64,000 nucleotides of DNA from Bacteroidota bacterium (GCA_947475165.1 CANJLD010000008.1:88841-152840), one strand, 5' to 3'. Counted from the first letter of the stretch, positions 50,463-61,221 are shown. Translations and numbers: made by a program. Notes: generated by a model not told the origin, from the letters alone.

Positions 50463-52511
50463 TTAGCGTTGCTTAGCTGTTTTGTTCAATTGTTTTTTAG
50501 CGCGCTCCTGCACCGGTGTTTTAACCGCCATGCGCTTAGCCGCTGCTGTTTGTTGTAAAGAAGCATTCTCGTCAATAGGGAAAGGTGCTACATAGCTGTT
50601 GTTACCTCTCGTATCACCTGACCCGCCCGCTGCATCGTAACCGAAGCGGTGATCCTGATAGTTAACGCGTTTAGCGCTAACACGGTAACTGAACGTTACG
50701 TTCGAATTGCCACCGCCCAGTTCTCTTACTTCAAAACCTGTTTTGCCCGGCACTACATATAAGCCTTTGCAATCGCCCTGCGGGGTAACTGTTACCACCA
50801 TAGGGTGTGCTGCATCAATCACCACGGTTTCTAAAAACAAAGCATCTAACTGTATAGCTGTAGAGCCGTTAGTCAAAGTAGCATTGCCAAAATCTTCAAA
50901 CCAAATACCCGGGCTTTCTACTGCATAAAGCAATTGGTTTCCTTTAGAAGTTGGAACCGAAGCCGATTTAGTTCCGGTAGTAGCTGTATTACCTCTGGCA
51001 TACACCGCGTAAGTATTAGCACTGGTACCTGCCGAGCCGTAAACACCATAATCTGCCTGGCCTAAACCTGAGTTTCCGTTATAACCTATACCTACAACAC
51101 CTGCACCCAAAAGATTAGCTGCATCATAATCGCCATATACACCAATATAAGCGGTATCGAGTGGAGCACCTCCACCAAGATTGGTTCCATACAAACCAAT
51201 AGATTGCGTCTGCGCGCCTTGATAAACACCTGCTGCACCAAATGCACCAGTCCCAGAGCTATCCACTGTTTGAAAAATACCTCCACTTCCGCTGGTACCT
51301 AAACCGTTTACCGCACCCCCTGTAGAAGTAGAATAGCCAACACCTATTACCGGAGAAATACCTGCTCTGCCCGCTGTTCCAAAAACACCGCTGGTATTAA
51401 CTAACCATCCGCCATATTGCACTGCCAACGCATTGTATCCTAAATAAGCATTTGCCGAATCATTTTGTGCCTGTACTCTTAAACCATAAGTACCCGAAAC
51501 CGAAGTGCCTTTATTAATACGCGCACCAGATAATGTTCCCGAAGAAATCAATAATCGGTCAGCAGCATTAGGCGCAGTATTTACACCCACAGCTACAGCA
51601 TTATCCTGAATTTGCGAAATCCCAATAGCAGTGGCACTTGTCCATTTAGCTACATAATTAGCAGTACCACCACTTAATGAAGCTGTTCCTGTAGCTCCTG
51701 TTGCGCCAGTTGCTCCTGTAGTTCCTGTTCCAGTTGCACCTGCAACACCAGTTGCGCCCGTAGCTCCTGTATTACCAGTCGCCCCTGTTGCACCTGTAGT
51801 GCCAGAACCCGTAGCTCCGGTTGCGCCTGTTGCACCGGTAGCACCAGTTGCTCCACCACCTGAACCAGTAGCACCGGTCGGTCCTGTTGGGCCAGTAGCA
51901 CCTGTTGAACCTGCACCTGTAGCTCCTGTTGCACCCGTATTACCGGTAGCTCCCGTTGCTCCGGTAGCCCCTGTTGGACCTGCTCCAGAACCTGTAGCAC
52001 CTGTTGGGCCTGTAGGACCAGTTACTCCCGCACCTGTATTGCCGGTGGCACCCGTAGCTCCTGTATTACCCACACCGCCAGCAGGACCTGTTGCACCGGT
52101 AGCTCCTGTAGCACCAGCTCCATTACCAGAATACAACGCGTAAGGAACACTAATTAATTGTGTTGTTCCCATATCTACATAAGAACCAGTATTATTTACA
52201 TCAACTTCTACTTGCAAAAACTTAAAACCAGTTCCCCAGTTTACTACACCTAAGTTACCGTTGCTGCCTATTTGCACATTCACTAAACCAAACTGGTTGC
52301 TGAACGTGTTTAAAATTTCGGTATAAACAGGAGTTCCACTCGATGAACCATCGTGAATAGTAAAGCGAAGTTTTACTGGTGTGTTATTAGCTACAGGTGT
52401 TCCTGCATTATTGCGGACTACCGCTTGGTAGTTCATTTGCTGCGGAGTTTGTGCCCTACTTGTAAGTGCTACAAGCATCAGCACATTCAGAAAAAGGATA
52501 ATTCTCTTCAT
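50463..52511 (-). CDS. Collagen-like fibre protein 1 (shared N-domain, Gly-X-Thr collagen, Gly-rich beta region, phage-tail-like C-domain)
   Basis: Signal peptide; [13 protein letters not shown]...SVPYALY; GAT/GPT triplets; [11 protein letters not shown]...VSAKR; no T9SS CTD. Confidence 0.85.
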
Positions 52512-52552
52512 GTGATTGATTGATTTTTAAAAATGAAAAATTAAAATACGGA

Positions 52553-57414: not shown

Positions 57415-60400
57415 TTATTTTCTCGCTCCTGCTGATTTAGGTTTATTTCTCAACACCGCAGGCACTTGTCCAAAACTAATAGACTTACCATTCCACCACA
57501 TACCTTGCCCCGCTCCTTCTTTGTTACCATCATCATACATTGACTTTAATAAATTGGAGTCAAAGGATTTGTCTGTAACTTGAGAAGGGATTTCCTTAGC
57601 AGCATCAATACGAGTACCGGCAGCTATCCAAGATAGAGCAACATTGCTATTGCCACCTTTAGATTCTTTGATAGTAAATCCATTTTTATTAACCGATGCA
57701 ATGTAAACTCCATTGCAATCGCCTTTAGGCGTAACCGTAACTTCCGGTGTACTTCCTAACAAAGAAGTAAAGTTTTCATCAAAGCTGATGTAAGCAGAAC
57801 CATTTACTAATTGAGCACTTCCTTTTTTGTAGATAACAGCCTCGGTAGAAGTATTAGAATAAGCAGCTACTTTATTATCGTTAGCTGTGTTTACTATTTC
57901 AATTTGACGACCGCTGGTATACACATCGCCAATATTGTATGCAGCAAATAAATCACCGGTATTTAATTGACCAACTACCGTACCTCTGGAAATCGAACCA
58001 ACCATATTACCATAGAAACCACCACCAATTCCACTAGTGCTTGTTGTTGGTAAAAATCCTGCTCCGCTTGCATAACCAGCACTACCATAAACTCCATAAC
58101 CTACAGCACCGCTTGAGTAGTATCCTAAAATACCCCAAACGCCATCTATAAGGTCTGACCCAATTACAGCACCGCTTCTTACATAATCAGCATCTGTTGC
58201 TCCCTGAACTCCAAAAGTATAAGAATCACCCCAATAAGAATACCCTGAAACTCCGCTATTGGTCTGTCCCAAGTAGTATCCGATTCCGTCATTTCGAGTA
58301 TTACGATCTCTGTAACCAAATATAGTTGCTTGACCATCGCCATTTGCTGTAAGTTGCTGACGATAAACATAGTCTTGGTACAAAATGTTTGGAGCAACAT
58401 TTACACCTATGCCGGTTCCGTTATCTTGTATTAGCGAGTTGCCTCCGCTAGTTCCGTTAGGCGTAAATTTGACTACGTAATTTAAAGTTCCGCTCAAACT
58501 ACCTGGACCTGTAGGACCTGTAACTCCTGTAGCACCCGTGTTGCCTGTTTGTCCTGTAGCACCAGTTTGTCCGGTTGCGCCAGTAGAGCCTTGCGCGCCT
58601 GTTGCTCCATCAGCACCCGTAGCACCTGTTGCTCCGTCTACTCCAGTAGCACCATTTACCCCTGTTGCTCCATCAGCACCTGTAGCACCATCGTTTCCAG
58701 TTGCTCCCGTTGCCCCGTTAGCACCTGTTGCTCCGTCTGCTCCCGTAGCACCATTTGATCCAGTAGCACCAGTTGCACCAGCATCACCAGTTGCTCCTTG
58801 TGCGCCTGTTGCACCCGTAGCTCCGGTAGCACCTGTTGCTCCAACTCCACCAGTAACTGCTTGCCAAGTTGCATTACCTGCTCCATCGTTTGTTAATACA
58901 TAGCCTGGTAGTTCTGTGCCATCAGATAAAAATAAAGGACCAAAGAATACACCCGCATAACCTGCTCCACCTGCTTCGCCCCATACACCAACACCGTCTG
59001 TTGTATAACCTATAGTAGCAATATCATCCGAGCTACCATACACACCAAAATCACGACCTGTGAAAGGCTGAGTGCCCAAGAAACCAATACCTGCTACACC
59101 GGCACCAAAAGCTGCACCGTTATAACCACCTAATACACCAATGTTTTGGCTACCAGTTGCTCGGCTGTTAAAACCTTCAACCCCTGCTCTTAAAGCTGTA
59201 GTGCCAGCATAGTTACCGCGTATAGCATTTAGAGTAGAAGTTGCTCTAACATCTAATTTAGCAGTAGTAGGTGTGGTTGTTCCAATACCTACGTTACCAC
59301 CGTTATTGAAAATGTTAGCATTGTTTAAAACCCATTGTGCTCCATCCCAATAAGTAGTGTTACCTGCGGTTGTGCCGGCAGATAATAAACCGGTTGCTCC
59401 TGTAGCTCCTGTTGCGCCAGCATTACCTGTAACACCCTGTGCGCCAGTTGCTCCATCAGCACCTTGTGCCCCAGTTGCTCCATCAGCACCTGTTGCTCCA
59501 GTTGCACCGTCAGCTCCAGTTGCTCCATCAGCACCCTGTGCGCCAGTTGCTCCATCAGCACCTTGTGCCCCAGTTGCTCCATCAGCACCTGTTGCTCCAT
59601 CAGCACCTTGTGCCCCAGTTGCTCCATCAGCACCTGTTGCTCCAGTTGCACCGTCAGCTCCAGTTGCTCCAGTTGCCCCATCAGCACCCTGTGCGCCAGT
59701 TGCTCCAGTAGCCCCACCAACGGTAGGAACCGCTTGCCAAGTAGCATTACCTGTTCCATCGTTAGTTAATACATATCCTGCCTGTTCTGTGCCATCAGAT
59801 AAAAACAAAGGGCCAAAGAATACACCCGCATAACCGGCACCGCCAGCTTCTCCCCATACTCCATAACCATCTACTGTATATCCTATTGTTCCAATACCTT
59901 CTGAACTACCGAAAACTCCAAAATCGCGACCTGCAAAAGGTTGTGTTCCTAAGTAACCGATACCTACTACACCTGCTCCAAAGCCAATTGTAGAAGCATA
60001 TTCTCCATATACACCGATATTTTGGCTACCTGAGTTGCGGCTATTGTAACCAACTACCCCAGAACGCAAAGCTGTCGTGCCAGTATAATCGCCACGAATA
60101 GCGTTAGTTGCACTTGATTTTACTTCCAATTTTGTAATTGGTGTAGTAGTACCTATACCAACATTGCCTCCATTGTTATAAATATTGCTGCTGTTTAGCA
60201 CCCATTGTGTACCATCCCAGTAAGTAGTATTTCCAGCGGCTGTGCCTGGTGATAAAAATCCAGTTGCACCTGTAGCTCCAGTTGCACCAGTTGCTCCGTC
60301 AGCTCCTGTAGCACCATCGGCTCCAGTTGCACCAGTTGCTCCGTCAGCTCCTGTAGCACCATCGGCTCCAGTTGCACCAGTTGCTCCGTCAGCTCCTGTA

Positions 60401-61221
60401 GCACCATCTGCGCCAGTTGCACCAGTTGCTCCGTCAGCTCCTGTAGCACCATCGGCTCCCGTTGCACCAGTTACTCCGTCAGCTCCTGTAGCACCATCTG
60501 CGCCAGTTGCACCAGTTGCTCCGTCAGCTCCTGTAGCACCATCGGCTCCAGTTGCACCAGTTGCTCCGTCAGCTCCTGTAGCACCATCTGCTCCTGTAGC
60601 ACCATCTGCTCCAGTTGCTCCGTCAGCTCCTGTAGCACCATCTGCTCCAGTTGCTCCGTCAGCTCCTGTAGCACCATCGGCTCCCGTTGCGCCAGCCGCT
60701 CCCGTAGCACCTGCTGCTCCCTGTGGACCAGCAGAACCAGCCGGACCTTGCGGACCAGTTGCACCAGGTAAGCCTTGCGGACCTTGCGGGCCAACGGCAC
60801 CAGTAGCTCCTGTTGAACCACCTGCACTATTCGCAGCATACAAAGCGTAAGGAACGCTTATTAATTGAGATGTTCCCATATCGGTAAAATTGCTTCCACC
60901 ATTAACATCTATTTCTACTTGTAAATATTTAGAACCGCTTCCCCAGCTAACAGCTGCAAGGTTGCCGGTACCACCAATAATTTGAGTAATCAACCCGAAC
61001 TGGTTAGTTACTGCTGTATTGGTTTCTTGAAATACCACCGCACCAGCCGGTGTTAAATCGTGAATTTGAAAACGAACAGTAACATTCGTACCGCCCGGTA
61101 GGGGATTTCCCAGCGCATCACGAACTATCGCTTGATAATTCATTTTTTGCGGGGCTTGTGCCATTGTTATGTATCCAAACATAACTAATATGGCAAAAAG
61201 AGAGAGTAACCTTCTTTTCAT
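57415..61221 (-). CDS. Collagen-like fibre protein 3, 1268 aa (three collagen tracts, duplicated internal module)
   Basis: [14 protein letters not shown]...SVPYALYA; GATGAD repeats; [10 protein letters not shown] motif twice; C-domain related to fibre 1 (VTVTP.GDC.G.Y...GGNSNV). Confidence 0.88.

Follow-up and report, generated by a model that had tools for sequence, protein, structure and literature searches.

Collagen-stalked fibre genes of Bacteroidota are paired with small type IX secretion cargo genes whose products may act as fibre adaptors

Here, we describe a cluster of fibre and partner genes in a 64,000-nucleotide window (the whole stretch of DNA analysed, C8:88841-152840) from the genome of a Bacteroidota bacterium (GCA_947475165.1, CANJLD010000008.1). 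The source assembly is 3.88 Mb in size and 99.7% complete, and the closest relatives of the genome are uncultured Chitinophagales. The cluster holds genes for three proteins with collagen stalks (fibres 1 to 3) and for four small partners (P1 to P4) that bear the C-terminal domain (CTD) of type IX secretion system (T9SS) cargo. All genes are on the minus strand, in the transcription order serA, fibre 3, M28 peptidase, P4, P3, fibre 2, P2, P1, fibre 1 (Table 1). We find that partner and fibre constitute a conserved functional module, paired far beyond chance. Our best reading is that a short domain of the partner is a T9SS-delivered adaptor that mounts the fibres, a role that has not been described.

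Fibre and partner genes of the cluster

The three fibres share an N-terminal domain (N-domain) of ~110 amino acids (aa), with 49-61% identity. A first-pass annotation, made from this DNA alone, had pointed out this domain in three secreted proteins; the motifs that it quoted are present in all three, but fibre 2 lacks a usable start for its signal peptide (see below). Behind each N-domain lies Gly-X-Thr collagen, as had been proposed, with 49 triplets in fibre 1, 21 in fibre 2, and 149 in fibre 3. Thr is the commonest residue at the Y position and the runs are proline-poor, with just 6-8 prolines per fibre. Matches to the collagen family PF01391 are strong in fibre 3 (Table 1) and below the cut-off in fibres 1 and 2. 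The triplets suggest that the fibres would form trimers.

AlphaFold predicts the N-domain, modelled alone, to be a beta-sandwich of six strands (predicted local distance difference test, pLDDT, 90.6; predicted template modelling score, pTM, 0.80). No close structural relative, solved or viral, was found with Foldseek, which returned only generic immunoglobulin (Ig)-like sandwiches (template modelling score, TM, <=0.59). Searches of PDB sequences likewise gave no match for the N-domain or for the mini-domain of the partners. All 15 N-domain copies of the genome match NF053851 (Bdello_MAT_N) at 21-36 bits against a 60-bit cut-off, and 44 of 45 N-domains stripped of their signal peptides match this family and no other. 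These scores place the N-domain as a distant, sub-threshold relative of the N-domain of Bdellovibrio mosaic adhesive trimer (MAT) fibres, not as a member of the curated family.

The fibres end in variable tips. The head of fibre 2 is weakly C1q/BclA_C-like (BclA_C, 16.8 bits against a cut-off of 38), with orthologues that match PF00386. It differs from the other two heads, but these do not differ in kind from each other, as had been claimed: the ~340-aa C-terminal regions of fibres 1 and 3 are homologous (30% identity, E = 7e-17). The broader idea of swappable tips holds, given Peptidase_S74, C1q, and Lcl_C tips elsewhere in this genome and Collar, BclA_C, S74, and C1q tips among homologues. 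The fibre family is large (>2217 matches within one length band), and the scores of the fibres against the Scl and Lcl equivalogs are far under the cut-offs. Two similar globular knobs of ~180 aa space the collagen runs of fibre 3 (59722-60249 and 58852-59382); they carry the motif YWDG.QWVLN and have no Pfam match.

We also confirm that the fibres have no T9SS CTD. None was detected among the three fibres of the window and ten more of the genome (0/13; Por_Secre_tail and CHU_C, searched as PF18962 and PF13585, and TIGR04183, at E<=0.01), nor among the top 120 fibre homologues. All 13 fibres carry a Sec signal peptide, with the exception of the start-less fibre 2.

Each partner consists of a signal peptide followed by a 50-aa mini-domain (SYTVGE...TQGFQQP) and, at the C terminus, a type A CTD. 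Read by eye, the signal peptide (MNKLYFLFLMVFASASLNA, with QM... following the cleavage site) starts with basic residues, continues with a hydrophobic core, and has Ala-x-Ala/Gln where it is cut. The CTD is matched by PF18962 (Por_Secre_tail; 40.9-44 bits against a cut-off of 27) and by TIGR04183 (35-36 bits against a cut-off of 23) in P1 to P3 and the distal half of P4; a Foldseek search with the CTD returned only generic Ig-like sandwiches. Fibres 1 and 2 each sit directly downstream of a partner gene (P1 and P3, respectively), as first noted. Short gaps between genes and terminator-like sites after fibres 1 and 3 are signs of an operon, and the scan of the cluster found no terminator-like site between a partner and a fibre. 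When promoters were sought with sigma-70 and TAnnTTTG patterns, the hits were not beyond chance.

Table 1. Features of the fibre/partner cluster and its neighbours. Positions are counted from the first letter of the window.
Feature	Position	Strand	Remarks
serA	61372-62610	-	directly upstream of fibre 3
Fibre 3 (1268 aa)	57415-61221	-	signal peptide; Collagen (PF01391) E 1e-54; partner gene not directly upstream
Fibre 3, N-domain	60829-61158	-	
Fibre 3, collagen (three runs)	60253-60819, 59383-59715, 58501-58851	-	
Fibre 3, C-terminal head	57415-58500	-	
Terminator-like hairpin 3' of fibre 3	57324-57355	-	13 pairs and a T run; consensus scan only
M28 family peptidase	56400-57311	-	signal peptide; separates fibre 3 from the partner genes
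Partner P4	55682-56206	-	in-frame TAG at 55994-55996, between mini-domain and CTD
Partner P3 (173 aa)	54968-55489	-	signal peptide; mini-domain, residues ~20-70; type A CTD, residues ~83-173; directly 5' of fibre 2
Fibre 2, from ancestral start	53917-54930	-	
Fibre 2, from first ATG	53917-54876	-	
Fibre 2, N-domain	54532-54870	-	followed by 21 collagen triplets
Fibre 2, head	53917-54354	-	C1q/BclA_C-like
Partner P2 (173 aa)	53234-53755	-	tandem with P1
Partner P1 (173 aa)	52553-53074	-	41 nt 5' of fibre 1
Fibre 1 (682 aa)	50463-52511	-	signal peptide; Gly-rich tail-fibre-like middle; head homologous to that of fibre 3
Fibre 1, N-domain	52122-52451	-	
Fibre 1, collagen	51681-52115	-	interrupted Gly-X-Thr
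Terminator-like hairpin 3' of fibre 1	50238-50267	-	between fibre cluster and gldM; ~500-bp spacer
gldM-gldN	47431-49966	-	second paralogous pair; T9SS motor and ring subunits

Not all of these genes are intact. Only three of the four partner genes recorded by the first-pass annotation are whole: the in-frame TAG of P4 adjoins a 3-nt insertion, and the orthologue in a syntenic metagenome contig (L121) is intact and reads Glu there. P4 is probably a pseudogene or the source of a CTD-less mini-domain peptide. Fibre 2 has lost its ancestral start codon. Position 54928-54930 reads AAA, such that the window has AAA AAA AAA TTA against ATG AAA AAA TTA in two orthologous contigs, a change that makes an A9 run. 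The sole remaining ATG is at the end of the signal peptide and gives a product without one. As assembled, fibre 2 is therefore not clearly secreted, although the loss of its start could be genuine or an assembly error. Thus, the architecture and gene order first reported stand, but the count of intact partners, the start of fibre 2, and the claimed differences among the heads do not. Further fibre genes are broken: one, at C2:120518-122367, is split into pieces of 154 aa and 456 aa, and the fibre 1 orthologue at L121:8738-10680 is riddled with stops. This suggests a fast turnover of the fibre repertoire.

Conservation of the partner-fibre pairing

The genome has 15 N-domain genes and 7 mini-domain genes. 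Each of the seven mini-domain genes (contigs C8, C13, C6, and C18) has a fibre gene on its own strand within ~1.3 kb downstream; in five cases the two genes are immediate neighbours, and the other two mini-domain genes are tandem copies. The same association is seen well beyond this genome. A query with P1 fetched 78 loci from metagenome-assembled genomes of Chitinophagales and Bacteroidales, of which 72 had room downstream. An N-domain starts 88-247 bp past the partner match in 54 of these, and the remaining P1-type loci have solo partners, many of them directly behind serA. A divergent partner from contig C18 (motifs SYTIGQ and QGVQQ) fetched 80 loci, 77 with room. Here, an N-domain starts within 60-488 bp in 73 loci and at 536-693 bp in the other 4. 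These C18-type loci span Flavobacteriales, Bacteroidales, and Chitinophagales, and include cultured strains of Psychroflexus and Mesohalobacter. In Psychroflexus salis CGMCC 1.12925, for example, a 163-aa partner (Por_Secre_tail, 53.7 bits) is located 88 nt 5' of a fibre (589 aa) whose tip is Lcl_C-like. In a phylum-wide sample of eight loci, seven had a gene of 157-192 aa located 1-16 nt 5' of the fibre, and six of these seven small genes scored over the cut-off for Por_Secre_tail.

The two modules also co-occur, as the first-pass annotation had proposed to check. Among 301 genomes of the order, 145 have both modules, 1 has the mini-domain alone, 45 have the N-domain alone, and 110 have neither (Fisher P = 9e-44, uncorrected for phylogeny). 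Fibres are thus found in 145 of the 146 genomes with a mini-domain, and the mini-domain itself was found across 66 genera. TIGR03517 matches to GldM were confined to genomes of the window's own class. Since loci from other classes still hold CTD-bearing partners, this model is too narrow to find fibre genomes that are free of T9SS.

The mini-domain family comprises at least 4474 clusters at 50% identity (E<=1e-3). Almost all of the top 150 mini-domain proteins are 160-180 aa long, with the module right behind the signal peptide; 130 of the 150 have Por_Secre_tail, 1 has CHU_C, and 2 have a dockerin. Larger members (492-1224 aa) combine the mini-domain with Ig-like or Cys-rich repeats and a CTD. 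Three proteins of 291-306 aa have a mini-domain and a dockerin-like C terminus but no CTD (L111:5020-5940, L119:5044-5919, and L120:2941-3822); the gene in L120 sits 3' of a gene for a 795-aa fibre. Larger or dockerin-bearing mini-domain proteins adjoin fibre genes in 8 of 11 cases examined, being downstream of the fibre in 6 of these 8, and 1 of 3 mini-domain-plus-dockerin proteins examined does so. Because larger mini-domain proteins also adjoin fibres, often from downstream, the association tracks the mini-domain itself and not gene order or size.

No part of the partner is better conserved than the mini-domain, in which TQGFQQP and S.S.T.GE do not vary. Among five paralogues of the genome, its ratio of nonsynonymous to synonymous substitution rates (dN/dS) is 0.006-0.09, with dS mostly saturated, and the mini-domain is thus under extreme purifying selection. 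Nonsynonymous divergence (dN) is 0.02-0.19 for the CTD (0.10-0.19 without the near-identical P1/P2 pair) and 0.3-1.1 for the signal peptide. In the AlphaFold model of P1, the mini-domain (residues 20-68) has a pLDDT of <50, compared with ~90 for the CTD in the same model.

Genes around the cluster are less constant. The M28 peptidase is absent from the syntenic L121 locus and is therefore not a conserved neighbour. A porP-gldKLMN cluster is present at C16:24719-30530, with porP, gldK, gldL, gldM, and gldN all scoring over their cut-offs. In the window, the gldM-gldN pair is a further copy (44% and 60% identity to gldM and gldN of C16, respectively), with neither gldK nor gldL beside it. L121 has pheS in its place, which shows that the proximity of gldMN to the fibres is not conserved. 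We regard the gldM-gldN pair as context rather than as an established part of the fibre system. A solo partner directly 3' of serA is present in many relatives (L034, L045, L047, L048, L054, and L057; mostly at ~6001-6522), and this arrangement is the ancestral form of the window's locus. Since relatives hold a solo partner where the window holds the whole cluster, this suggests that the cluster grew at the site 3' of serA. Secreted Lys/Pro/Thr-rich proteins of ~100-145 aa adjoin several fibre or partner genes (C3:103949-104281, C13:24883-25218, L023:5307-5744, and L051:6630-6929).

A possible adaptor role for the partner

Cargo of T9SS is generally held to be recognised via its own CTD, and after removal of the CTD is either released or linked to the cell surface. 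By analogy, a mature partner would be a T9SS-delivered peptide of ~55 residues, i.e., the mini-domain. This domain combines strong constraint, the lack of a confident fold, tight coupling to fibres, and fusion to varied anchor and spacer modules, which together point to a peptide that binds the fibre base. We can thus envisage a two-component surface-fibre system, comprising a fibre and a T9SS-delivered partner. The fibres would be Sec-exported, collagen-stalked trimers of the MAT kind, with the constant N-domain as base, a Gly-X-Thr stalk, and an interchangeable tip. The partner would be a minimal T9SS cargo, reduced to the mini-domain peptide by loss of its signal peptide and CTD. In the periplasm, the mini-domain might bind the N-domain and fold upon binding. 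The type A CTD of the partner would then act in trans to take the complex through the T9SS translocon, and its cleavage would leave the adaptor, and hence the base of the fibre, fixed to the cell surface. The binding, co-export, and anchoring steps, and likewise trimer formation and the surface location of the fibres, are what we infer from the data above. We prefer this CTD-in-trans model because the fibres have Sec signal peptides and no outer-membrane export signal, and no other route is evident. That the partner both carries the fibre through T9SS and anchors it may well be the case, but we would not call it probable.

The first-pass annotation had also suggested that the mini-domain might complete the N-domain. 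This version is not favoured, because the N-domain folds confidently alone and it is the mini-domain that lacks a confident fold. Homology between the two, as a donor-strand idea would have it, was rejected (hhalign probability 0.2). Loci searched with the profiles of both modules contained no mini-domain/N-domain fusion; for the 150 best mini-domain proteins, the scan was against Pfam only. One-to-one pairing of partners and fibres is not supported either, with 7 partners against 15 fibres, the partners nearly identical and some of them solo. As the partners are near-identical and fewer than the fibres, one kind of adaptor probably serves many fibres in trans.

Several observations weigh against the CTD-in-trans model. 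Recognisable adjacent partners are missing for the fibres of 45 genomes and for 9-10 fibres of this genome, and solo partners exist, so the pair is not obligate in cis. Across 68 pairs, we found no clear signal of covariation between mini-domain and N-domain; TQGFQQP is invariant whichever TNQFGL variant it accompanies. A shallow alignment (effective number of sequences, Neff, ~1.7) may account in part for the low pLDDT of the mini-domain, and the lack of a confident fold is therefore suggestive only. Two of the seven fibre/partner genes in the window look damaged (the nonsense codon of P4 and the start of fibre 2). Some mini-domain proteins end in a dockerin rather than a CTD, and the role of adaptor therefore fits better than that of a universal T9SS carrier. 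Homologous MAT fibres reach the surface of Bdellovibrio, which to our knowledge has no T9SS. In the literature searched, we found no account of a CTD-less protein being exported in trans through T9SS.

These points bear on three alternatives. The partner might serve as an anchor only, with the fibres crossing the outer membrane elsewise and a surface mini-domain, delivered by T9SS, acting as a socket for the N-domain. Longer mini-domain proteins would then be pedestals, and dockerin forms would plug into cohesins. Such a division of labour is consistent with a constant mini-domain joined to a variable C-terminal module (type A CTD, one type B CTD, or dockerin), with partners that are generic and fewer than the fibres, with a base homologous to a MAT N-domain that is proposed to bind the surface, and with the very existence of MAT fibres in Bdellovibrio. 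However, we see no other way here for a folded trimer, once exported by Sec, to cross the outer membrane, and the tight spacing of 1-41 nt between partner and fibre genes suggests joint production ahead of export. We consider an anchor-only role unlikely. About as unlikely, in our view, is a linked function without stable binding, in which the partner is either a small peptide in its own right, at the surface or secreted, or helps transiently in fibre assembly, for instance by nucleating or capping the trimer. It would be expressed together with the fibres without carrying or anchoring them. Adjacency and co-occurrence demonstrate shared function only, and the lack of covariation and the many fibres without a neighbouring partner agree with this looser link. 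Yet a periplasmic helper needs no T9SS tag, which 130 of the 150 family members keep, and the mini-domain also occurs as part of long repeat proteins of the surface type.

The third alternative, that the fibres are relics of phage tail fibres and that the small genes travel along as mobile cargo without a joint cellular function, is far less credible. PHROG tail-fibre families do match fibres 1 and 2, mostly through collagen, the tips include Peptidase_S74 and Collar, and the cluster contains pseudogenes. Against this, the fibres bear Sec signal peptides, their neighbours are housekeeping genes (serA, gldMN, and transketolase) with no phage genes among them, and the pairing is kept, under strong purifying selection, in different classes of the phylum. 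We retain the CTD-in-trans model as the working account of the pair. Its general form, that T9SS exports and mounts CTD-less proteins by way of dedicated mini-adaptors, from which the CTD comes in trans, is conceivable but, to our minds, rather doubtful.

Relation to known systems and significance

Among described systems, the MAT fibres of Bdellovibrio bacteriovorus come closest; in this family the N-domain is invariant and the tips are mosaic (Caulton et al. 2024, PMC10769870). Its authors presume that the N-domain of MAT fibres binds some element of the surface, as yet unidentified (PMC10769870). Both systems have a constant N-terminal domain without a solved structural relative, a long stalk (trimeric in MAT fibres and predicted to be so here), swappable tips with and without an S74 chaperone, and many paralogues per genome. 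They differ in the stalk, which is Gly-X-Thr collagen here but a beta-helix in MAT fibres, and in the host, which here is a member of the Bacteroidota with a T9SS; moreover, the N-domain scores of 21-36 bits are below the 60-bit cut-off. A conserved small CTD-bearing neighbour is present here, whereas no partner has been identified for MAT fibres.

Within T9SS biology, cargo with dedicated neighbouring helper genes is known from SprB/SprF and from type B CTD proteins, which are paired with PorP/SprF-like proteins. In these systems, as here, the gene for a surface adhesin or fibre adjoins a T9SS-related gene; export or mounting of the known cargo depends on this neighbour, and an equivalent dependence is what we propose for the present fibres (for context, see PMC12618676 and PMC10202324). 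The roles are different, however: there, the CTD is on the cargo itself and a PorP-like protein of the outer membrane acts as helper, whereas here the fibre is CTD-less and its neighbour is itself type A cargo.

Two further parallels are functional analogies only. In the BclA filaments of the Bacillus exosporium, an N-terminal domain attaches to the basal-layer protein BxpB/ExsFA. These filaments are likewise Thr-rich, collagen-like trimers with a C1q/TNF-like tip and an N-terminal end fixed to a small base protein, as proposed for the present fibres. Unlike the latter, they are assembled on a Gram-positive spore inside the mother cell, without a secretion system, and the sequence relation is limited to the weak BclA_C match of 16.8 bits. 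In hitchhiker export by the twin-arginine translocation (Tat) system, e.g., of PaoABC or of the small and large subunits of hydrogenase, a signal-bearing subunit carries a folded, signal-less partner (PMC4273604). The proposed supply of a CTD in trans would follow the same logic at another membrane and with other machinery; no T9SS counterpart is known. In keeping with the first-pass annotation, which knew of no experimental description of the pairing, our literature search, including a 2023 review of T9SS effectors, found nothing on the pairing, on T9SS hitchhiking or export in trans, or on the motifs.

If our model is correct, a widespread class of CTD-less fibres would rely on a separate, minimal CTD protein, which would give T9SS a further mode of export or anchoring, in trans, and one secretion tag would serve a whole set of interchangeable adhesive fibres. 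The gene pair is a concrete candidate for the element that holds the MAT-type N-domain at the surface, which is an open question in the MAT study (PMC10769870). The mini-domain family, with at least 4474 clusters of mostly ~170-aa proteins, would then be the sought surface partner of MAT-type bases in Bacteroidota. This question can be tested in cultured carriers of the pair, such as P. salis CGMCC 1.12925. Fibres with C1q, lectin-like, and S74-type tips probably shape adhesion, aggregation, or contact with prey and hosts in abundant freshwater and wastewater Bacteroidota.

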